Notes: generated by a model from the sequence alone, not told the origin. A DNA stretch of 60,677 nt from an uncultured Clostridia bacterium (GCA_947626555.1 CANQSP010000002.1:1-60677); one strand, 5' to 3'; positions 4,938 through 36,844 are shown, numbered from the stretch's first letter. A program made the numbers and translations.

Positions 4938-5891
4938 ATGAATAAAAAAATAATTTTTATAATATTAGCTATAGTTATTATTTTAGTAGTAGCTATTGGA
5001 GGAATTGTATTTCTAAACAATAATAATGAAGGAAATTCTACTCAACCTTTTAATTCTAGCAATAAATCATCAAATGATGGAACTACATCTTCCACTCAAC
5101 AGGCAGAATCTATTGAAGATTTACCAAAATATAATAATTACAAATTATATGAAATAAAAGATGCTGTTAATGAAGATTGGTTTACAAAAATAGGTGAAGT
5201 CGGAGAACTAAAAAAATCTGCTTCAACTGACAACCCTTTTAATTACAGTGATGTCATTTTAGGATACAATGAAAAAACAAAAAAGCAATATTTATATCCT
5301 GATGCTATAATTATTCAAGGGAAAAATGATAAAAAAGAATTCGAACAAACTGTAATAAAAAAAGAGCAATATGATACTGGTGATGGCTATGAATTTGTAA
5401 AAAATGTTTTAAAAATATCTGGATCTACAGACGATGAGATTGAGGAAATAATATTAGATAATTTTAAGATAACAGATGAAGATATTAATAAAGAAGTAGA
5501 ATCACTAAGTAAGTATTCTGAAACATCAGCACAAAAATATAAGGATAGAATGACAGTTCCTCATTCTAATACTGTAAGTAAACAAATGCCATGGAACTTC
5601 TACAAAAATTTACGAGCAGATGCATTCAATTTTAAAGTTGAGGCTTGGGAAGTTCCAAATGAAATGAATGAAATCGCAACTTATAGCTTTAATATTTCAG
5701 GAAATTGTGGTGATCAATATAAAGATTTTGGCGGTGAATATAGAATAATATTAGTTTATGATGATTTAAAGGCTAATGTAAACATTTCATATAGTGAAAA
5801 TGATGATGTAAAATATTATGCAAAATTTTATTATTATTCAGGAATACTTGATAAAGATGCTTATGAAAAGTATTCTAATAGTGAAGATTAA
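4938..5891 (+). CDS. membrane-anchored protein (317 aa), unknown function
   Basis: ATG 4938 lies 7 nt after AGGAGG. N-terminal TM helix IIFIILAIVIILVVAIGGIVF followed by an N/S/T-rich linker. Confidence 0.65.
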   Translation: MNKKIIFIILAIVIILVVAIGGIVFLNNNNEGNSTQPFNSSNKSSNDGTTSSTQQAESIEDLPKYNNYKLYEIKDAVNEDWFTKIGEVGELKKSASTDNPFNYSDVILGYNEKTKKQYLYPDAIIIQGKNDKKEFEQTVIKKEQYDTGDGYEFVKNVLKISGSTDDEIEEIILDNFKITDEDINKEVESLSKYSETSAQKYKDRMTVPHSNTVSKQMPWNFYKNLRADAFNFKVEAWEVPNEMNEIATYSFNISGNCGDQYKDFGGEYRIILVYDDLKANVNISYSENDDVKYYAKFYYYSGILDKDAYEKYSNSED

Positions 5892-8471: not shown

Positions 8472-8606
8472 TTTAAACTATTAGGGACGGGGTTAAATAG
8501 TTTAGCTGTATTAAAACTATTCACCCTTTTTCCCTAACAGCTCTATATTATTTAAAAACTCCTTAATTTCAGCTAAACTATTTAACCCCGTCCCTAATAG
8601 TTTATA
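8472..8606. repeat. mini copy of the nested-palindrome element (outer hairpin pair only, plus one degenerate module)
   Basis: 8472-8506 TTTAAACTATTAGGGACGGGGTTAAATAGTTTAGC and 8572-8606 GCTAAACTATTTAACCCCGTCCCTAATAGTTTATA are inverted copies of the outer modules seen at 12061, 20048 and 27834. 8513-8543 looks like a decayed third module. Confidence 0.85.
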
Positions 8607-11600
8607 TGTGATATAAGGCTGACTTCCTGGCGAAAATTTTACTCTATTTCCGTATTCTTTTATTAATGGGTTCACAATATCTACATTAAATTTTTCTGCA
8701 TCAAAAATATATACTATGCCATCCCTTTTTTGTGATACTTTTATTACATTTGCTTTTTTGCACATTTCTTTTATTCTTGCTATTTCTATTAGGTTTTCAA
8801 CTTCTTTTGGTATTCCGCCGAATCTATCTATTATTTCATCTATAATGTTTTGAACATCTTCTTCTGTTCTACATAGTGCTATATCTTGATATATTTCTAT
8901 TTTTTGACTACTATCACTTATAAATTCGTCTGGTATATAGCTTGATACATTTAAGTCTATTTGAACGTCTTTTTCTTCATATACCTCTATTCCCTGCATT
9001 TGCTTTATGACTTCATCTAAAAGTTTGCAATATGTGTCATATCCTACTTGTTCCATGTGACCATGTTGAATTTCTCCCAATAAACTTCCTGCTCCCCTTA
9101 TTTCTAGGTCACGCATTGCTATTTTAAATCCAGAGCCAAATTCAGTAAATTCTTTTATTGCTTTTAACCTTTTATCTGCTACCTCTGATAATAGTTTGTC
9201 TCTTTTATATGTTACATATGCATATGCCTGCTTATTACTTCTTCCAACTCTACCTCTTATTTGATATAGTTGAGCTAGACCTAATCTATCTGCATCTTCT
9301 ACTATTATTGTGTTCGCATTTGGTATATCTATTCCAGATTCTAATATTGTTGTGCATACTAGTACGTTAGTTTTTCCCTCTACGAACTGCATCATAATAT
9401 CTTCAAGTTCATTACCTGTCATTTTTCCATGTGCCACTGCTACATTTGCCTCTGGTACTAAAAATGATATTTCATCTGCTTTTTTATTTATTGATTCAAC
9501 TTTGTTATATAAATAGAAAACCTGACCGCCTCTTTCTAGTTCTTTGGTTATTGCTTCTTTTATAACTTCTTCATCATATTCTAAAATGTAAGTTTGAACA
9601 GGTCTTCTGTTCTGTGGAGGCTCGTATATAACAGACATATCTCTTACACCAACTATTGACATGTGAAGCGTTCTTGGTATTGGTGTTGCAGTCATTGTAA
9701 GTACGTCTATACTTGCTTTATATTGCTTTATTTTTTCTTTATCTTTTACACCAAATCTGTGCTCCTCATCTATTATAAGTAGCCCTAAGTCTTTAAATTC
9801 AACATCTTTGCTTAATATTCTATGTGTTCCTATTACAACATCTATTTCACCTAATTTTAATTTTCTTACTATTTCATCTTGCTCTTTTTTAGTTCTAAAT
9901 CTATTTAATAATTCAACCCTTATTGCAAAGTTTTCCATTCTGGATTTAAAGCTTTCGTATTGCTGATTTGCAAGTATTGTTGTTGGCACTAAATATGCAA
10001 CTTGTTTTTGATCCATTACCGCCTTAAATGCTGCCCTTATTGCAACTTCAGTTTTTCCATATCCAACATCACCACACAAAAGCCTATCCATCGGTCTTGG
10101 TTGTTCCATGTCTTTCTTTGTTTCCTCTATGCAACGAAGTTGGTCGTCTGTTTCTGCATATTCAAAACTTTCCTCAAATTCTTTTTGCCATGGTGTGTCT
10201 TTTGAAAATGCAAAACCTTTTATTTTCTGCCTTTTAGCATAAAGTTCAATTAATTCTTTTGCCACTTCTTTTAAATTATTCTTAACTTTTGCTTTAGTAC
10301 TCTCCCACTCTTTTCCGCCTAATCTATTAATTTTTGGAACAGCTTCTCCTGCACCTATATATTTTCTTATGTTGTCTAAATCGTTTGTAGGAATGTATAA
10401 CATATCATCATTCCTATACCTTATTTTAATATAGTCTTTTGTAACTCCCTCTGTTTTGATAGTATTTACCCCTATAAATTGACCTATACCATGATTTTTA
10501 TGCACCACATAGTCACCAATTTGTAAGTCTGCAAATACTACCTTTTCTCCTTCCTTAAAGGCCGAAGATAATTTTCTCTTTTTCTTTACATTTGTTTCAA
10601 ATAAATCTTCTCCAGTTATTACAATTAAATTCAAATCATAACATTCAAAGCCTTCTGATAGTCTACCTTTGGAAACTATCACTTCGCCTTTTTTGTATTC
10701 TACATTTTCTAAATTATCTACATATTTACTTTGTATTTCTTTTTCATTTAATAAAATTGCAAATTTTCTGGAATCCTCTTCATTTCCTGCTAATATTATT
10801 ATTTGCTTTTTAGATTTTTTTATGTCTTCAAATAGCAATTCCATTTCACTTTTATAATAATTTACATCTCTAAAGTTAAACACAAATTTCGTACTACTTG
10901 CATTTGAAACTCCGAAATCTTGCTTTTCTAAATATACTACCTGTTTTTCTTCTAAATTATAGACATATTCACTTATATTTTGAATAGACTGTGGAATCAT
11001 TTTTTGCTTTTCTACTAATGTTTTTATTAAATTATTATTCTCTATAATTATATTTTCTTGTCTTTGATTTACCTTTGAAAATTCATCTATTAAAATTAAA
11101 TACTTATCTAAATAATCTAAAAAACTACCCTGCTTTTTATAAAAACAGTTAAAATATTTATCTATTTTACTAATATAATTTCCACTTTTTATTTGTTCTA
11201 TATCTTCTTGTCTTATCTGCTCTAATTCATTCGTTTCTAGTTTTCCTTCTAAGATTTTGTTACATATATCAGTTATACTTTCTTCAATTAAAAATTCATG
11301 TGAAGGGTAAATTTCCACATTTTCTAGCATAACCGTAGACCTTTGGTCGCTAATACTAAATTGCCTTATAGAATCTATTTCATCTCCCCAAAACTCTATT
11401 CTTATACCACTTTTTTCACTATTAGAAATATCTACAATTCCACCTCTTATACTAAATTGCCCTCTACCTTCTACTAAATCATTTCTTTCATAACCCAAAT
11501 AAACTAAATCTTGCTTCAACTTCTCTAAATCATAGGTATCCCCAATTTTAAACTTTAAAATATTTTTATATAAACTTGTTTTAGTAATCATTTTTTGCAT

Positions 11601-11975
11601 TATTGCCTCAATAGTTGTTACCACTATTTTAGCCTTACCATTTTTTATTTTATTTAACGTCTCAATTCTTTCATATGGTAAGTCTTGACTTTGAGCAATA
11701 TAATCATAAGTTACAATCTCCCTTTTAGGAAAATATGAAATATTTTGTTCCTTTTCAAAATAGGCTAAATCTTGAATTATTTTCTTAGCTTGAATTTCAT
11801 TATATGTTACAATGCATATAGGCTTCTTAGAATACTCCTTTGTTGCATATGCAAATCCTATTTTTCCCACGTCAGATAAGCCCGATATCGTTATCGGACT
11901 ATTTTTTTCTTTTATTTTTTCTATATACTCTTGAAATTTTGGGAGCTCACTTAATTTTTCTATTATTGAATTCAT
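8517..11975 (-). CDS. mfd: transcription-repair coupling factor
   Basis: 1152 aa. CarD-like GDYVVHKNHGIGQF, Walker A GDVGYGKTEVA, IIDEEHRFGV, helicase C motifs LYQIRGRVGRS. AAGGAGA SD before ATG 11975. The last 29 codons are element-derived (see findings). Confidence 0.97.
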   Translation of the reverse strand: MNSIIEKLSELPKFQEYIEKIKEKNSPITISGLSDVGKIGFAYATKEYSKKPICIVTYNEIQAKKIIQDLAYFEKEQNISYFPKREIVTYDYIAQSQDLPYERIETLNKIKNGKAKIVVTTIEAIMQKMITKTSLYKNILKFKIGDTYDLEKLKQDLVYLGYERNDLVEGRGQFSIRGGIVDISNSEKSGIRIEFWGDEIDSIRQFSISDQRSTVMLENVEIYPSHEFLIEESITDICNKILEGKLETNELEQIRQEDIEQIKSGNYISKIDKYFNCFYKKQGSFLDYLDKYLILIDEFSKVNQRQENIIIENNNLIKTLVEKQKMIPQSIQNISEYVYNLEEKQVVYLEKQDFGVSNASSTKFVFNFRDVNYYKSEMELLFEDIKKSKKQIIILAGNEEDSRKFAILLNEKEIQSKYVDNLENVEYKKGEVIVSKGRLSEGFECYDLNLIVITGEDLFETNVKKKRKLSSAFKEGEKVVFADLQIGDYVVHKNHGIGQFIGVNTIKTEGVTKDYIKIRYRNDDMLYIPTNDLDNIRKYIGAGEAVPKINRLGGKEWESTKAKVKNNLKEVAKELIELYAKRQKIKGFAFSKDTPWQKEFEESFEYAETDDQLRCIEETKKDMEQPRPMDRLLCGDVGYGKTEVAIRAAFKAVMDQKQVAYLVPTTILANQQYESFKSRMENFAIRVELLNRFRTKKEQDEIVRKLKLGEIDVVIGTHRILSKDVEFKDLGLLIIDEEHRFGVKDKEKIKQYKASIDVLTMTATPIPRTLHMSIVGVRDMSVIYEPPQNRRPVQTYILEYDEEVIKEAITKELERGGQVFYLYNKVESINKKADEISFLVPEANVAVAHGKMTGNELEDIMMQFVEGKTNVLVCTTILESGIDIPNANTIIVEDADRLGLAQLYQIRGRVGRSNKQAYAYVTYKRDKLLSEVADKRLKAIKEFTEFGSGFKIAMRDLEIRGAGSLLGEIQHGHMEQVGYDTYCKLLDEVIKQMQGIEVYEEKDVQIDLNVSSYIPDEFISDSSQKIEIYQDIALCRTEEDVQNIIDEIIDRFGGIPKEVENLIEIARIKEMCKKANVIKVSQKRDGIVYIFDAEKFNVDIVNPLIKEYGNRVKFSPGSQPYITYKLLGTGLNSLAEIKEFLNNIELLGKKGE

Positions 11976-12060: not shown

Positions 12061-12404
12061 GCTAAACTATTGGGGACGGGGTTAAATAGTTTAGCACTTA
12101 CTTTATTTTTGTTAAACTATTAGGGACGGAGTTAAATAGTTTAACAACTTAATTGCTATATAGCAAAACATTAATATTATATATTTTGAAGTGATTCGTG
12201 GGGACCGTTTTAGAAAATGTTACGAACATGTGTGAGTTACATTTTCTTAAATGGGGCAACGCAAAAATATATAATATTAATGTTTTGCAAGTATTATAAT
12301 TAAAATTTAGTTAAACTATTTAACTCCGTCCCTAATAGTTTAACTGTTTCGTTATAGATTACTAATTGTGCTAAACTATTTAACCCCGTCCCCAATAGTT
12401 TAGC
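12061..12404. mobile_element. nested-palindrome element, copy A (putative non-autonomous MITE/REPIN-like element)
   Basis: Outer modules 12061-12095 and 12370-12404 are perfect 35-nt inverted repeats. Inner modules 12111-12145 and 12310-12344 are also perfect. The core has a 25-bp stem (12163-12187 with 12264-12288). No ORF over 28 codons. Confidence 0.7.
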
Positions 12405-18619: not shown

Positions 18620-18626
18620 CTCTTTT

Positions 18627-18716
18627 TACACAAACTTATCTTACAGAAACTTTATTCAGTACAAAATTTATTTTACACAAAATTTATCTCACATAAACGT
18701 TATCTACACAAAATGC
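18627..18716. repeat. about six degenerate ~15-16-bp tandem repeats (TACACAAAnTTATCT-like)
   Basis: TACACAAACTTATCT / TACAGAAACTTTATTCAG / TACAAAATTTATTT / TACACAAAATTTATCTC / ACATAAACGTTATC / TACACAAAATGC, read directly. Confidence 0.6.
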
Positions 18717-20044: not shown

Positions 20045-20392
20045 CTCCTTAAACTAATAGGGACGGGGTTAAATAGTTTAGCACTTATTTTATTTTTTAG
20101 TTAAACTATTAGGGACGGAGTTAAATAGTTTAACAACTTAACTGCTATATAGCAAAACATTAATATTATATATTTTGTAGTGATTCGTGGGGACCGTTTT
20201 AGAAAATGTTACGAACATGCGTGAGTTACATTTTCTTAAATGGGGCAACGCAAAAATATATAATATTAATGTTTTGCAAGTAAAATAGTTTAAATTTTGT
20301 TAAACTATTTAACTCCGTCCCTAATAGTTTAACTCTTTATAAATTACTAATTGTGCTAAACTATTTAACCCCGTCCCTATTAGTTTAAGGAG
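20045..20392. mobile_element. nested-palindrome element, copy B (termini extended to CTCCTT...AAGGAG)
   Basis: Outer modules 20048-20082 and 20355-20389 are perfect inverted repeats, and the IR extends 3 nt further on each side. Inner modules 20100-20134 and 20299-20333. Core stem 20152-20176 with 20253-20277. Confidence 0.7.
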
Positions 20393-20535
20393 ATTTACAA
20401 ATTTTATGCAAAATATTTACATAATAAAAAAATTATGTTAAAATTGAAAACAGAGTTTTATTTTTAGCTATAAAAAGAAAGTTAGTGATAAGTGTTATTG
20501 TAACTATCGACCAATTTCATTTTAAGGAGGACACT

Positions 20536-22221
20536 ATGCAATTCGTTACTAATCATCTTTGGGTAATTATAGTTATTGCGGCAATTATTGGAATCATAAT
20601 TTTTCTGGCTGCAATCTACAAAGTTGCTGATATTGACAAGGCACTGATAATCACTGGTGGCAAGGAACCTGTTATCAAGGTATCTGGGGGCTCGTTTGTC
20701 ATCCCTATTTTCCGCAAAGCAAGCTACTTTGATTTATGTATGCTTACTGTACGAGCAGATAAGGATGAAATTAAGACCTGTACCGCTGTGCCTATTGTTG
20801 CTGACTGGACTGCTCAAATTCGCCCTTGTGTTAACGATGAAACTAAACTTCGTACAGCAATTATTTCCTTTAAGGAACGAGGTAATGATGGTATTATTGC
20901 GGATGTTAAGCTCACTCTTATGGGTGCTGTGCGTGATGTTGTTGCCTCTATGACTCCTGAAGCAATTTTGAATAACAAAGAAGCTTTTAAACAGGAAATT
21001 CAGAAAAGCGTTGCTGATGAAATGGATAATATGGGCCTTGAGCTTGTATCTCTAAACATTCAGGATGTTTCTGATAGTAACGGCTACTATGACAACATTG
21101 CTGCTTTGGATTCAGCTGAAAAGCGTAAAGCTGCTGAAATTAAGCATGCAGAAGTTGACCAAGTAACTCGCGAAAAGAAGGCAGAAGCAACTAGAGCTGC
21201 TGAAATTGCCGAGGCAACAGCTAAGAAGGAAACCGAGATTTCCAAGATGGAGGCAGAGCTTGCCGAGAAGGAAAAGCGCAAAGATACCGACATGAAACTC
21301 GCAGAATTCAAAATTGCAACAGAAACCGCCAACGCAGATGCTGACGTTGCTGGAGAACTGCAGAAAACTCTTCGCGAACGTGAAGTCGAGGAACGTAAGG
21401 GTGCTGTTGCTGTTATGAAGGCAGAGCAGGAAAACCTTGCAGCTCAAAAAGAGCGTGAAGTTATGATTACACGTGCAGAAGCTGATAAGGCGACTAAGCT
21501 TGTTAATGCAGAAGCAGATGCAAACGTTCAGGCTATTCAGGCAGATGCCCAAATAAAAGTTGCCGAGCGTAAGGCTGATGCAGCGCGTAAAGAAGCCCAA
21601 GGTAATGCTGACGTTGAAACTATTGCAGCTGAGGCTCGTGTAAACGTTGCCGATCGCGACGCTGAAGCAGTTAAGAAGTCTGCTTTTGCACAAGCTGAAA
21701 AGACTCGTGCCGAAGGTCTTGCCGAAGCTGAGGTTTCCAAGCAAAAGGCTCTTGCTGAAGCTGAAGGTAAAAAAGCTGCTCTCTTAGCTGAAGCAGAAGG
21801 TTTAAAAGCTCAGCAACTTGCTGAAGCTGAAGGTATCAAAGCCAAGAAGCTTGCAGAAGCTGAAGGTGAAAAATCCCTTGCAGAAGCACGTGCAGCAAAT
21901 GAAAAAGTCAATTTCGAGATTGAGAAACTCAAGATTCAAACTGATGCTCAAGTAAGAATAGCCACTTCTACTGCTGAAATTATGGCAAATATTGGGCAAA
22001 ATGCCGAATTCGTCAATATCGGCGGTGGAAATGTTCCTTGTCCTACAGGTACAAGTGGAACAGGTAATGTTTTACTTGACACCATAATGCAGATGCCTGC
22101 ATTGATGAAGACTCTTAACATCCAGAATGAGGCACTCAATGGTCGGCCTGTTACAGAAGAAATCAAAAACATTTCTGATGCAGCCCTTTCTGGCTTGGGA
22201 GCACTAAAAAAAGAGTCATAA
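20536..22221 (+). CDS. flotillin-family protein (SPFH/Band 7 domain plus long Ala/Glu-rich coiled coil)
   Basis: ATG 20536 lies 5 nt after AAGGAGG. N-terminal TM helix, SPFH region (IITGGKEPV...FVIPIFRKASYFDL...) and EA-rich repeats (AEAEGKKAALLAEAEGLKAQQLAEAEGIKAKKLAEAEGEK). G+C is far above its neighbours. Confidence 0.85.
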   Translation: MQFVTNHLWVIIVIAAIIGIIIFLAAIYKVADIDKALIITGGKEPVIKVSGGSFVIPIFRKASYFDLCMLTVRADKDEIKTCTAVPIVADWTAQIRPCVNDETKLRTAIISFKERGNDGIIADVKLTLMGAVRDVVASMTPEAILNNKEAFKQEIQKSVADEMDNMGLELVSLNIQDVSDSNGYYDNIAALDSAEKRKAAEIKHAEVDQVTREKKAEATRAAEIAEATAKKETEISKMEAELAEKEKRKDTDMKLAEFKIATETANADADVAGELQKTLREREVEERKGAVAVMKAEQENLAAQKEREVMITRAEADKATKLVNAEADANVQAIQADAQIKVAERKADAARKEAQGNADVETIAAEARVNVADRDAEAVKKSAFAQAEKTRAEGLAEAEVSKQKALAEAEGKKAALLAEAEGLKAQQLAEAEGIKAKKLAEAEGEKSLAEARAANEKVNFEIEKLKIQTDAQVRIATSTAEIMANIGQNAEFVNIGGGNVPCPTGTSGTGNVLLDTIMQMPALMKTLNIQNEALNGRPVTEEIKNISDAALSGLGALKKES

Positions 22222-27833: not shown

Positions 27834-28179
27834 GCTAAACTATTAGGGACGGGGTTAAATAGTTTAGCACTAAGCTATTTCTTAAGTTAAACTATTAGGG
27901 ACGGAGTTAAATAGTTTAACAACTTAATTGTTATATAGCAAAACATTAATATTATATATTTTGTAGTGATTCGTGGGGACCGTTTTAGAAAATGTTACGA
28001 ACGTATGTGAGTTACATTTTCTTAAATGGGGCAACGCAAAAATATATAATATTCATGTTTTGCAAATAATATAAATAAAATTTTCTTAAACTATTTAACT
28101 CCGTCCCTAATAGTTTAACTGTTACTTTGCAAATTACTAATTGTGCTAAACTATTTAACCCCGTCCCTAATAGTTTAGC
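27834..28179. mobile_element. nested-palindrome element, copy C (inside the acc/fab operon)
   Basis: Outer modules 27834-27868 and 28145-28179 are perfect inverted repeats. Inner modules 27886-27920 and 28085-28119. Core stem 27938-27962 with 28039-28063 (one mismatch). Confidence 0.7.
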
Positions 28180-33178: not shown

Positions 33179-35620
33179 ATGACTGAAGATTATTTAAATA
33201 AACTTGAATTCAAAGAAATTAAATTAAAATTAGAAAAACACTGTAAAACTTATATAGCCAAAGAAAAGGCAAGAAATTTAGTACCTAGCTTTAAGAAATT
33301 GCAAGTAGAAAGTTTACTTTCCGAAACACTTGAAGCTTCAAATTTATGCGTTAGAAAATCTAACTTACCTAGCAATGAAATAGCTGACATATCTATTGCA
33401 ATAAAAAGCTTGCAAAGCGGTAACTCTTTAAGTGCAAAGTCTTTATTGGAAATTGCAAACATCTTGAAACTTGCAAGAGAATTTAAAGAATATTTTTATA
33501 AAGACGAAGAATTTGATATTTCTGCATTTCCAAAATTAGATGGATATTTTTCTAGTTTATATTCAAACCCAAATATTGAAAGTAAAATATTTTCAAGTAT
33601 TATAGATGAAGAAAATATTTCAGATGATGCTTCTTCACAGCTTTCTTCTTTAAGAAGAAATAGAAGAAAATTAGAAGCAGATATTAAAAATACTTTAGGA
33701 AATTTAATTCATTCTTCAACTTATTCAAAATATATAATGGAACCTATTATTACAATTAGGAATGATAGGTACGTTATACCTGTAAAAGAAGAATATCGAG
33801 GAAATGTTAAAGGTTTTATACATGACATGTCTGCAAGTGGCTCTACCGTGTTTATTGAGCCAATGTCCGTTTTTGAAATGAATAATAAAATTAATAATTT
33901 AAAAATAGAAGAAAATATAGAAATTGAAAAAATATTACAAAATTTATCTAGCTTATTGTTTAATTACACAAATGAGCTTTCTACTGATGTAAATTTAATT
34001 GGAACTTTAGATTTTATTTTTGCCAAAGCTAACTTTTCTAAAGAAATTGGCGGTATTTTACCTAAAATTAATGATACTAAATCCATTAATCTAATTCAAG
34101 CACGCCATCCATTAATTGATGAAAATGTAGTTGTACCAATAGATATAGAAATTGGTTCAAAATATAATTCATTAATTATTACAGGACCAAACACTGGTGG
34201 AAAAACTGTTACTTTAAAAACTTGCGGATTGCTTTGCATTATGGCATATTGTGGACTTTTTATTCCTGCAAGTGAAAACTCTAGTGTTTATGTTTTTGAT
34301 AATGTTTTTGCAGATATAGGAGATGAACAAAGTATTCAAGAGTCTTTAAGTACTTTCTCTTCTCATATGTTAAACATAGTAAATATAATAAAGCATGCTA
34401 CTTCTAATAGTCTGGTTTTATTAGATGAACTTGGCTCTGGTACAGATCCACTAGAAGGTGCAAATTTAGCAATTAGTATCTTAGAACATTTTAATAAATT
34501 AGGTACTATTACCATTGCTACAACACATTATCAAGAAATAAAAAATTATGCTCTTGTAAATGACGGTTTTGAAAATGCAAGTTCTGAATTTGATATTGAG
34601 CATTTAAAACCAACGTACAAGCTATTAATTGGAATTCCTGGAAAAAGTAATGCTTTTGCAATTAGCCAAAAATTAGGTCTTCCCGACACTATTTTAAATA
34701 GGGCAAAACAACTTTTAAATAATGATGATATAAGCATTGAAGAACTTTTAAAAAATATTTATGATGATAAAATACAAATTGAAAGAGAAAAAAATGAAAT
34801 TACAAAAAACTTAAATCAAGTTCAATCTTTAAGGAAATCTTTAGAAAAAGATAACTCTAGGCAAAAAGAAAGGGAAAAACAACTTGCCGAAAATGCAAAA
34901 ATTCAAGCTCAAGACATTATTCTTTCAGCTAAAGATGAGGCAAACTCTACTATTAAAGAGTTGGATAATATTTATGCAAAATTCAAAAATTTAGAAAATA
35001 TTGATTTTACTTCACTTAATGACACTGAAATTGCAAATATTATAAGAAATAACTTCGATGTCTCTTCTATTTCAAGGGCTAATAAATTTAGAAACAAACT
35101 AAATGAAAGCTTATCTTCAATAAACCGTAACCCTGGAGAAGAAACTTCTACTGTACTTACTAAAAAGGATTTAAAAGTTGGCATGATTGTAAATTTAAAA
35201 AATATTAATGAACCTGCTACTATCTATTCCCTATCTGGAAAAAATGACTCTTTGCAAGTTCAAATTGGAAGTGCAAAACTTACAATAAAAGTTAGTGATA
35301 TTTTAAACATTAAAGCCAATACTAAAAGCCATACTAATTCTAAAGTTAATTATAGTAATTCAGAAAAAGCAAAACATATTAATACTGAAATTAATGTAAT
35401 TGGTCAAAATGTTGACGAAGCCATTTTTGTTATAGATAAATATTTGGACGATTGCTATATTTCAAAGCTTAGCCCTATTCGTATTGTTCATGGTAAGGGT
35501 ACTGGCAAACTTCGCGAGGGTATTCACGCATTTTTAAAAAATCACCCTCATGTTAAAAGTTTTAGACTTGGCACCTTTGGTGAAGGTGAAATGGGAGTTA
35601 CTATTGTAGAATTAAATTAA
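33179..35620 (+). CDS. mutS2: endonuclease MutS2
   Basis: 813 aa. Walker A GPNTGGKTVTLKT, LLDELGSGTDP, and C-terminal Smr domain (IRIVHGKGTGKLREGI). Confidence 0.95.
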   Translation: MTEDYLNKLEFKEIKLKLEKHCKTYIAKEKARNLVPSFKKLQVESLLSETLEASNLCVRKSNLPSNEIADISIAIKSLQSGNSLSAKSLLEIANILKLAREFKEYFYKDEEFDISAFPKLDGYFSSLYSNPNIESKIFSSIIDEENISDDASSQLSSLRRNRRKLEADIKNTLGNLIHSSTYSKYIMEPIITIRNDRYVIPVKEEYRGNVKGFIHDMSASGSTVFIEPMSVFEMNNKINNLKIEENIEIEKILQNLSSLLFNYTNELSTDVNLIGTLDFIFAKANFSKEIGGILPKINDTKSINLIQARHPLIDENVVVPIDIEIGSKYNSLIITGPNTGGKTVTLKTCGLLCIMAYCGLFIPASENSSVYVFDNVFADIGDEQSIQESLSTFSSHMLNIVNIIKHATSNSLVLLDELGSGTDPLEGANLAISILEHFNKLGTITIATTHYQEIKNYALVNDGFENASSEFDIEHLKPTYKLLIGIPGKSNAFAISQKLGLPDTILNRAKQLLNNDDISIEELLKNIYDDKIQIEREKNEITKNLNQVQSLRKSLEKDNSRQKEREKQLAENAKIQAQDIILSAKDEANSTIKELDNIYAKFKNLENIDFTSLNDTEIANIIRNNFDVSSISRANKFRNKLNESLSSINRNPGEETSTVLTKKDLKVGMIVNLKNINEPATIYSLSGKNDSLQVQIGSAKLTIKVSDILNIKANTKSHTNSKVNYSNSEKAKHINTEINVIGQNVDEAIFVIDKYLDDCYISKLSPIRIVHGKGTGKLREGIHAFLKNHPHVKSFRLGTFGEGEMGVTIVELN

Positions 35621-35630
35621 TTGAATTTAA

Positions 35631-35705
35631 AACACGGACTTTTGCGTTTGATTTTCAAGCAACAGTTGCTTAATGATTTGAAAATCGAACACCAAGGTCC
35701 GCGTT
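35631..35705. repeat. long imperfect inverted repeat (28-nt arms)
   Basis: AACACGGACTTTTGCGTTTGATTTTCAA (35631-35658) versus TTGAAAATCGAACACCAAGGTCCGCGTT (35678-35705). 23 Watson-Crick pairs and 2 G-U out of 28 positions. Confidence 0.7.
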
Positions 35706-35845
35706 AAAATTTCATTTTGTAACCCAAATTTCCCATCTTTAAAATTTATTTTTGTAACTCAAGGTCTACGCCTTTAAAATTTATTTCTATAAATCAAGTT
35801 CCCCGTCTTCAAAATTTATTTTTTTACTCAAGGTTCTTCCTTTAT
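35706..35845. repeat. four exact-period 35-bp tandem repeats (AAAATTTATTTTTGTAACTCAAGGTCnnCGCCTTT-like)
   Basis: Units start at 35706, 35741, 35776 and 35811. The right arm of the preceding hairpin resembles a fifth unit. Confidence 0.75.
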
Positions 35846-35847
35846 TA

Positions 35848-36792
35848 TTAACCTTTATATTCTCCACCATTAATATGCATAACTTGACCTGTAACATATG
35901 ATGAATCTGAACTTGCTAAATATATAAATAGTGGTGCTATTTCATATGGATGACCTGCTCTTCCCATTGGTGCATCTGAACCTAATGTTGGTATTTTTTC
36001 TGCCTCCCAACAAGCTGGTTGCAAAGGTGTCCAAAATACTCCTGGAGACACTGCATTTACTCTTATATTTTTCTCTGCTAAATTAGTTGCAAGTGACCTC
36101 GTAAAACCTACAATTGCACTTTTACTTGTTACATAATCTATTAATTCTGGCTCTCCTTTAAAGGTAGTTATGGAAGTTACATTTATAATGCTTGAACCTG
36201 GTAACATGTGTTTTAATGCTTTTTTAGTTAAATAAAACATTGCATATACATTAGTCTTCATAGTCAAATCAAATTGTTCGTCTGTTATATCTAATAAACT
36301 TTTTTGTTGATACTGAACCCCTGCATTATTTACTAAAATATCTATTTTTCCAAACTTATTTATAGTTTCATCTACTATTTTATCACAAAAACTATTATCC
36401 TTTATATCTCCTGCAAGTAATATACATGTTCCCCCAAGTCTTTCTATAAATTCTTTGGTTTCCTCTGCATCTTTATGTTCATTATAATAGGCAATTACTA
36501 CAGTTGCCCCTTCTTTTACAAATCCAACTGCTACCGCTCTACCTATTCCAGAATCCCCACCTGTTATAATTGCTACTTTATTCATAAGTTTTCCAGAACC
36601 TCTATAATATGGATTATTAAATATAGGTCTAGGTGTCATTAAATATTCCATTCCTGGCTGAGTGTCTTGATGCTGTGGAGGAAATTCCAGCTTATAGTCT
36701 TTACATATTAAGCCATATCCTTGTTCGTTTATGTATTTTAAACCATAATCATCTTGACCATTATTGTTTGAAGTATAATATTTATAATTCAT
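35848..36792 (-). CDS. SDR family oxidoreductase (YhdF/general-stress-protein-39-like)
   Basis: ATG 36792 lies 6 nt after AAAGGGGTG. IITGGDSGIGRA, NNAG, and YVTSKSAIVGF motifs. Confidence 0.85.
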   Translation of the reverse strand: MNYKYYTSNNNGQDDYGLKYINEQGYGLICKDYKLEFPPQHQDTQPGMEYLMTPRPIFNNPYYRGSGKLMNKVAIITGGDSGIGRAVAVGFVKEGATVVIAYYNEHKDAEETKEFIERLGGTCILLAGDIKDNSFCDKIVDETINKFGKIDILVNNAGVQYQQKSLLDITDEQFDLTMKTNVYAMFYLTKKALKHMLPGSSIINVTSITTFKGEPELIDYVTSKSAIVGFTRSLATNLAEKNIRVNAVSPGVFWTPLQPACWEAEKIPTLGSDAPMGRAGHPYEIAPLFIYLASSDSSYVTGQVMHINGGEYKG

Positions 36793-36844
36793 TTTTTTCA
36801 CCCCTTTTATTTTATTCAAAGTAATAAGTTTTGGTGTATAAAGA

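Follow-up and report, generated by a model that had tools for sequence, protein, structure and literature searches.

A conserved core in palindromic repeats of rabbit-gut Clostridia: most likely a hairpin of mobile DNA rather than an RNA gene

The repeats of the window and the fold of their core

The DNA analyzed here, called the window in the following, is a stretch of 60,677 nt (28% GC) from an uncultured Clostridia bacterium. It contains three large palindromic elements, one of which, element A, is located between the divergent genes for mfd (- strand) and for a Gate-domain membrane protein (+ strand), as well as a smaller relative. The elements are built from H units of 35 nt, each with a variable-ended stem of 9-11 bp (xxTAAACTATT/AATAGTTTAyy) and a 13-nt loop of the sequence [A/G]GGGACGG[G/A]GTTA ([A/G]GGGACGGGGTTA), and 14 H units are present in the 60.7 kb. 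All three large elements harbor a core of 126 nt, which is doubly bracketed in the order H1 H2 core H2' H1' and centered in an inverted repeat of H units of about 345 bp. The overall length of the palindromic repeats including the core is 230-350 bases. The features are as follows.

8472-8606, no strand assigned: core-less family member, with H(+) 8472-8506, a 69-nt unrelated spacer, and H(-) 8572-8606
12061-12404, no strand assigned: composite element A, with H1(+) 12061-12095, H2(+) 12111-12145, core 12163-12288, H2(-) 12310-12344, and H1(-) 12370-12404
20048-20389, no strand assigned: composite element B, with H1(+) 20048-20082, H2(+) 20100-20134, core 20152-20277, H2(-) 20299-20333, and H1(-) 20355-20389
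27834-28179, no strand assigned: composite element C, with H1(+) 27834-27868, H2(+) 27886-27920, core 27938-28063, H2(-) 28085-28119, and H1(-) 28145-28179
12163-12288, + strand: core of element A, the apical module under study, 126 nt
12163-12187 with 12264-12288: outer stem of core A, 25 bp
12188-12211: G-strand 1 of core A
12200-12212, + strand: H-loop-like 13-mer GGGGACCGTTTTA of core A; the same motif is at 20189-20201 in core B and at 27975-27987 in core C
12212-12220 with 12239-12247: inner stem of core A, AGAAAATGT/ACATTTTCT, 9 bp
12221-12238: structured tip of core A
12248-12263: G-strand 2 of core A, with GGGG at 12253-12256

Several additional features of the window should be mentioned. 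The 5' part of a bacterial 16S rRNA gene, comprising the first 343 model positions, is located at 1-396 on the - strand, the rest being cut off at the window edge. An intergenic 16-nt tandem repeat, TTACACAAACTTATC, is present in 5.6 copies at 18626-18712, and its units contain TTATC(T/C)ACA-like words that resemble DnaA boxes, so that the region might be a replication origin or a regulatory region. Another intergenic tandem array, 35704-35832, has a period of 35 nt and consists of 3.7 copies of TTAAAATTTATTTTTGTAAC followed by about 14 variable nt; it lies between the ORFs 33179-35620 (+) and 35848-36819 (-), and its spacing is too short for a CRISPR. An in-frame 33-nt repeat (LAEAEG-type, 3.7 copies) at 21748-21867 is part of the ORF 20485-22221.

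The 25-nt arm GCAAAACATTAATATTATATATTTT occurs six times in the window, that is, in three inverted pairs (12163-12187/12264-12288, 20152-20176/20253-20277, and 27938-27962/28039-28063), none of which would be expected from shuffles. An earlier note on this DNA had described three copies with an outer stem of 25 bp and an inner stem of 9 bp, and its coordinates and sequences were correct. Pairing of the outer stem is indeed perfect in copies A and B, with one mismatch in copy C, and the differences between the copies are found where the note had placed them, in the hairpin loop apart from one next to the long stem. The core is not free-standing, being always the center of a larger inverted repeat. 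The predicted fold is very stable as RNA on the + strand (-48.7 kcal/mol, z -10.3 versus shuffles) as well as on the - strand (-37.3 kcal/mol, z -8.2), the G-rich strand being about 11 kcal/mol better than its complement, and also with DNA parameters (-30 kcal/mol, z -9.1).

Covariation, on which the earlier note had made its candidate depend, was observed when more homologs were aligned. The alignment of this core type, named F1, comprises 17 copies, three from the window and the others from three MAG species, and 98.6% of its cells are paired. Two-sided changes are present in seven pairs (columns 27/153, 33/147, 35/145, 47/133, 51/129, 87/101, and 90/98), and in a control in which the partners were slid by 1-3 columns pairing fell to 41-55%. 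In the outer stem the changes are Watson-Crick swaps, several of them transversions, or outright mismatches, and G.U intermediates are not found in any of the aligned copies. In the inner helix, two single-sided changes are G.U-compatible. What had been described as an 18-nt loop is a variable site, as stated, but not a plain loop: it consists of a T.T pair, 2 bp, tandem G.A/A.G pairs, another 2 bp, and a terminal loop of 4-5 nt, and both of its sequence variants preserve this structure via two compensatory pairs. The unpaired G-rich strands are the most conserved parts of the core. The sequence TCGTGGGGACC is identical in 16 of 16 full F1 copies, the deletion variant L046 retaining only TCGTGGGG, and AATGGGGCA is invariant across the F1 copies. 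The preservation of the fold by compensatory changes indicates that the core is a nucleic-acid hairpin under constraint.

One of the conserved strands resembles the loop of the H units. GGGGACCGTTTTA is identical to the H1 loop GGGGACGGGGTTA at 10 of 13 positions. When the whole window was searched for the H loop with up to three mismatches allowed, all 14 H units and all three cores matched, and only a single further match turned up, compared to a chance expectation of 1.8. The probability of finding such a 13-mer by chance inside a 126-nt stretch is about 0.004. Therefore, the core presents a third H-loop-like motif, which, being confined to one strand, makes the palindrome polar.

Distribution and architecture of the repeat family

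An exact-pattern scan for the H motif, performed with one genome per species, revealed more than 79 loci among the matches listed, and all matches listed are in three MAGs of "uncultured Clostridia" from rabbit gut (Lapin-007 bin5, Lapin-008 bin42, and Lapin-032 bin34). Contigs identical to the window come from ENA sample ERZ27249386, and the window is syntenic with loci of two of the three MAGs at 78-95% identity. In viral contigs there was no match to the H motif; a single match to a loose core pattern was in a GC-rich phage coding region and was discarded as chance. Scans of the JGI metagenomes yielded no match for the core pattern and none for the H motif, and a distant BLAST search with the whole element against plasmid and phage collections did not yield a match either. 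Many MAG and Logan contigs end in or beside elements of the H/core family (L003, L005, L013, L032, L049, and L072), which evidently breaks short-read assemblies of these genomes.

The H units are always arranged as convergent pairs, with 58 "+-", 24 "++--", and no "-+" arrangements among the matches listed. The spacers between paired units fall into classes of 6-7 nt (minimal doublets), 41-53, 60-81, 121-132, 166-174, and 185-212 nt. The 166-174-nt class contains the 126-nt core and represents F1 (17 copies including the window, plus four cut by contig ends), while the 185-212-nt class, F2, contains a palindrome of about 165 nt (about 20 copies). GCAAAACATTAATAT forms the stem base at the beginning of both types, and both have a bulge, GTGGGGACC, on one side, but their interiors differ: in F2 the stem base is followed by the one-sided bulge ATTTTGTGGGGACC and then by a long inner hairpin unlike that of F1. 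Doublets of the minimal form H(+)-6/7 nt-H(-) are present at L027 (4987-5481), L014, L028, L031, L054, L080, and L084, and L027 has two of them at a distance of 357 nt. They are the simplest family members and candidates for the ancestral form.

About half of the H pairs are devoid of a long core, and for one deletion derivative the origin is traceable: the 53-nt spacer of L045 is the F2 cargo of the neighboring element with its interior deleted between TAATAT direct repeats. In addition, L046 is an F1 copy without the inner hairpin. Therefore, the core is dispensable for the persistence of the element.

Several observations show that the long-range hairpin is the conserved structure. At variable positions inside the unit, the loop included, the H(+) and H(-) partners agree in 94-99% of cases, compared to an expectation of 50-90%, and at the two outermost closing positions in 66-78%, compared to about 35%. 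Perfect local stems of 11 bp are found in only 16 of 212 H units. High partner agreement together with the scarcity of perfect local stems indicates that a long-range hairpin of the REPIN type is maintained. A single H unit is predicted to fold as a hairpin with a z score of -5 to -6, and the whole element A (356 nt) as one long hairpin of -108.5 kcal/mol with DNA parameters (z -21). Fold-back (snap-back) synthesis was considered as a source of the arm symmetry and was rejected, because the H1-H2 and H2-core spacers are not complementary between the two sides. Position counts of the H units did not contain a GTAG or CGTC tag; the conserved non-stem motif is GGGAC, and it is located in the loop. 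A consistent target-site duplication or a conserved insertion target was not found at about 85 element ends. The lack of a target-site duplication fits the single-strand chemistry of HUH enzymes, without proving it.

At the three orthologous sites that could be compared, with flanks of 78-95% identity, the element is present throughout, as expected of vertically persisting REPINs. The interiors are rearranged. At the site of copy B, the outer H ends of L050 are unchanged, but its core is inverted and an H2 pair is missing; L061, at the site of copy A, lacks the H2 pair as well. Copies inside one genome resemble each other more than they resemble their orthologs, which fits an exchange or inversion of the interior via the 35-nt inverted repeats.

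This modularity raises the question whether the core is a part of the element or a guest in it. The core is conserved to 86-100%, in contrast to the adjoining 20-nt spacers to the H units, which differ strongly between subfamilies, and this far higher conservation could be due to an independent function or to independent mobility. In the latter case the core would be a second-tier mobile palindrome, a MITE-like insert with terminal inverted repeats of 25-33 bp (GCAAAACATTAATAT...), which would insert preferentially into the spacers of H doublets already present, or reach them by gene conversion. It would then be understandable that F1 and F2 combine the same stem base with different interiors, that orthologous sites share the outer H ends while the interiors and the core orientation differ, and that the outer spacers of the "++168--" arrangement sum to about 48 nt, the spacer size of a simple doublet, which suggests nesting. 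However, every core in the window and the cataloged loci is flanked by convergent H units, and in about 650 kb of loci plus the window a core was never found outside an H pair. Furthermore, the spacers beside the core travel with it inside one subfamily, and the short spacers with a single GCAAAACATTAATAT arm look like deletion products of long forms, as exemplified by the TAATAT repeats of L045. Target-site duplications flanking the terminal inverted repeats, by which a DDE-type MITE is recognized, were not seen at the core ends, and a transposase with matching ends was not found. Taken together, an origin of the core as an independent insert is unlikely.

The earlier note had proposed a structured RNA, and of this proposal the constrained fold with compensatory changes could be corroborated, whereas the evidence on the RNA gene points to a repeat at the DNA level. 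The strong conserved fold with its compensatory pairs, the invariance of the unpaired G-rich strands, the better folding of the G-strand as RNA compared to its complement, and the two G.U-compatible single-sided changes in the inner helix would be explained if the core were a small RNA gene or a cis-acting RNA that is processed from transcripts of the host. In other bacteria, co-transcription of REP-type repeats is common, and they can influence how stable an mRNA is. However, the Watson-Crick swaps of the outer stem without G.U intermediates argue against an RNA. The fold, which the earlier note had not recognized as a known riboswitch or ribozyme, has no counterpart in Rfam: the database did not yield a match to the element at the gathering score when the whole window was searched, and matches to the element at E values up to 10 were generic hairpin or miRNA-like noise far below threshold. 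Promoter-like sites are not in excess (5 versus 3.8 in shuffles), terminator-like sites are absent, and from the sole promoter-like site near the core a transcript would begin within the stem, so that an own promoter or intrinsic terminator was rejected. The G-strand does not show a strand bias with respect to co-directional flanking genes (10 same, 12 opposite; F1 4/6, F2 6/6), and the core is flipped at an orthologous site. Moreover, about half of the elements have no core, and where present it is always inside a DNA repeat that is linked to a transposase gene (see below). Therefore, a function as structured RNA seems improbable to us; the core is most likely a hairpin of mobile DNA rather than an RNA gene.

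Two more specific proposals of the earlier note concern features that are not conserved. A pseudoknot between UUCGU and ACGAA was rejected as a conserved feature, because 10 of the 16 full copies have AUGAG as partner sequence. The alternative that the core is a micro-ORF of 25-28 codons starting at ATG 12217 is based on its being open in the three window copies, which was confirmed. However, it is broken in 12 of the 13 other copies, with a stop after two codons in 10 and after four codons in two of them, and the remaining copy is cut to 15 codons. As the note had remarked, no Shine-Dalgarno motif precedes the ATG. The micro-ORF was rejected as a coding gene, and the probability that it explains the core is negligible.

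Family members also touch the coding regions and translation signals of neighboring genes. The core-less element at 8472-8606, which has orthologous copies in L056 and L061, overlaps the 3' end of the mfd ORF. The last 30 or so codons of this mfd-like ORF (- strand, 8517-11975) traverse the H(+)..H(-) element (8517-8606), and the H(-) unit encodes ...KLLGTGLNSL..., so that the gene has recruited its C-terminal codons and its stop from repeat DNA. H(-) units abut ribosome-binding sites (L086 4010-4045; L058 6437-6475; window 20380-20392), ...AATAGTTTAGGAGGAATG...ATG precedes groEL in two species, and in window copy B both sides end in TTAAGGAG, next to gene starts. The repeat may supply or displace translation signals.

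A linked Y1/HUH gene

The repeat family is linked to a gene for a Y1/HUH protein. At locus L058 a single H(+) and a single H(-) bracket an ORF of 252 aa (5109-5864). The protein scores 51 bits with Pfam Y1_Tnp (cut-off 23), and its best model is NCBIfam REP_Tyr_transpos, the REP-associated tyrosine transposase, with 66.6 bits, which is below the cut-off of 80; the IS200 model yields 25 bits. The sole PDB match is the E. coli TnpArep structure 4ER8, which is weak (E 0.015) but has the HUH and Y..NPVK motifs aligned. In two species, at L058 and at L086 (2501-3259), the gene separates fhs from groES and has H(+) on its upstream and H(-) on its downstream side. The ortholog, P0002, is 85% identical, and inverted H units bracket it in this fhs-groES interval, too; the contig that carries it originates from the sample that also yielded the window's contig, at a similar coverage. 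Among the loci analyzed, which are from fragmentary MAGs, one copy of the gene was found. The gene is wedged between fhs and the control region of a heat-shock operon: an inverted repeat, TTAGCAGTC-N9-GACTGCTAA, is present upstream of groES (L086 3511-3537; L058 6011-6037), just downstream of the Y1 gene and its H(-) unit, and resembles the CIRCE/HrcA operator.

The protein family is widespread in Clostridia MAGs (321 matches). The genes of three homologs with 41-46% identity from other Clostridia genomes are also flanked by inverted hairpins, which have different stems but the same GGGAC-type 13-nt loop.

L090 flanking hairpin: AAGATGATTTT-AGGGACGGGGGTA-AAAATCATCTT
L091 flanking hairpin: GAACTTTT-GGGGACAGTCTTA-AAAGTTC
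L089 flanking hairpin: ATTTT-AGGGACGCCCTTC-AAAAT

The loop motif thus co-occurs with the protein clade while the stem is free to vary, as expected of a hairpin that is recognized by an HUH enzyme. The flanking unit is not repeated nearby in the genomes of L089, L090, and L091; the rabbit lineage has expanded its own version of the hairpin.

The C-terminal tail of the 252-aa protein itself does not have a significant Pfam match. It aligns with a region that scores HTH_24 in P0113 (25.8 bits, above the cut-off) and HTH_Crp_2 in P0084 (24.3 bits, below the cut-off). Such an HTH-like tail could bind duplex DNA, and one might view the core as a binding site for a nucleoid protein or a regulator in double-stranded DNA, carried passively by the element. 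A precedent would be the BIMEs of E. coli, mosaic REP elements with conserved motifs between the REPs, such as the L motif, to which IHF binds. The AT-rich, perfectly symmetric 25-bp stem and the conserved, asymmetric G-rich motifs of the core would be in agreement with this view. However, the compensatory changes keep pairing rather than a fixed sequence, and the binding protein is hypothetical. We regard a double-strand binding site as a very improbable explanation; an RNA-level or protein-binding role of the core is possible but unsupported.

Proposed mechanism and comparison with known systems

In our best explanation, which we consider to be probably correct, the element is a non-autonomous DNA repeat of REPIN-like type (REP doublet or TIR dimer), and the core is its conserved apical hairpin. 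From the biochemistry of IS200/IS605 and of RAYTs we infer the following mechanism. When single-stranded, for instance in the lagging-strand template, the element as a whole would snap into a single long hairpin. The dedicated 252-aa Y1/HUH enzyme with its HTH-like C-terminal tail would recognize the GGGAC loop motif presented by the hairpin, and by cutting and rejoining the strand would cause elements to be copied or maintained. The core would lengthen and stabilize the hairpin tip and expose the third H-loop-like motif (GGGGACCGTTTTA and the second GGGG run) on one strand only. The inverted 35-nt repeats that flank the interior would allow recombination to flip it or to exchange it between loci. 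Such turnover would explain why copies are homogeneous within a genome yet rearranged at orthologous sites. A transposition event, an empty site, or an excision product was not observed in the material analyzed.

A further-reaching and rather doubtful idea is that the core is a selected, oriented functional module, which displays the recognition loop of the Y1 enzyme (GGGGAC...GGGG) on one strand only and in this way gives polarity to an otherwise symmetric REPIN. For example, it might be the site at which the enzyme starts strand cleavage or copying, or an RNA of the G-strand might act together with the enzyme. If this were true, the Clostridia would contain a REPIN population with a built-in cis-acting control element and a TIRYT-type enzyme.

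REPIN-RAYT systems have been studied almost exclusively in Proteobacteria, and for the long TnpA_REP/TIRYT class with its HTH, neither associated REP populations nor a substrate have so far been reported. In the rabbit-gut lineage, nature provides a case in which an enzyme of this kind is associated with hairpins that have strongly expanded. The motif for recognition stands out clearly, being conserved across homologs while the stems differ, and some elements add an oriented apical module. The H and core sequences are concrete oligonucleotide substrates for biochemistry, and the family is a model for the growth, nesting, flipping, and decay of REP doublets. For annotation, the palindromes of 230-350 bp should be masked as repeats and should not be annotated as RNA genes.

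The closest parallel are the REPIN-RAYT systems of P. fluorescens SBW25 and the REP/BIME elements of E. coli with TnpArep/YafM. As in these systems, the palindromes are short, abundant, mostly intergenic, and arranged as inverted pairs that form one long hairpin with covarying arms; orthologous sites remain occupied, and the cognate HUH/Y1 gene is at a fixed chromosomal position and is flanked by inverted units (properties of REPINs and RAYTs are described in 10.1101/2021.07.10.451892; PMC5581495). However, the GTAG head is missing, and GGGAC is in the loop of the hairpin and not at its foot. The enzyme has 252 aa with an HTH-like tail, compared to about 165 aa for E. coli TnpArep, and is below the NCBIfam cut-off for RAYTs. 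The host belongs to a Clostridia lineage, while only RAYT groups 2 and 3 have been tied to abundant repeats and the Clostridia-containing Group 1 has not (PMC5581495). REPIN spacers have been described as highly variable (10.1101/2021.07.10.451892), in contrast to the long, highly conserved, and asymmetric module found here.

Common features are also shared with the TIRtrons. Like a TIRYT, the rabbit-gut protein exceeds a RAYT in length, and the alignment of its tail to the homologs suggests an HTH-like domain at the C-terminus, as in TIRYTs. In addition, the gene is flanked by inverted repeats with a GGGGWSAS-type motif, and some TIR families are repeated as dimers. The inverted repeats flanking TIRYT genes carry GGGGWSAS (Di Nocera 2013, PMC3733652), to which GGGGACGG of the H1 unit of window copy A fits at 7 of 8 positions, AGGGACGG of most H units at 6 of 8, and GGGGACAG of the L091 homolog at 8 of 8. 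Matched against the published description, the protein appears to fit subclass 2.1 in its length and C-terminal tail, i.e., the long TnpA_REP proteins with a C-terminal HTH that were reported without REP-like sequences nearby (Quentin 2018, PMC6006769). TIR families are only moderately abundant according to the literature on TIRtrons and subclass 2.1 (PMC3733652, PMC6006769), whereas the flanking unit described here is a true expanded hairpin, with 14 units in 60.7 kb and more than 79 loci among the matches listed.

The E. coli BIMEs resemble the present elements in their mosaic structure, in which a conserved non-REP module is enclosed by inverted REP units. However, this module is a 126-nt hairpin with an H-loop-like motif in the present case, an IHF-type site was not identified in it, and there is no sequence relation. 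Elements of the IS200/IS605 family and their miniature derivatives, the PATEs, also depend on a Y1/HUH enzyme, their hairpins are expected to be recognized on single-stranded DNA, and they do not generate target-site duplications. The ends of IS200/IS605 elements are two different sub-terminal hairpins, in contrast to the exact inverted repeats found here; moreover, the gene appears not to move with the ends, and the IS200 model yields only 25 bits. The family thus departs from the described systems by its Clostridia host, a loop motif instead of GTAG, a long HTH-tailed enzyme, nested double brackets, and a conserved, asymmetric spacer module that bears a motif of its own.
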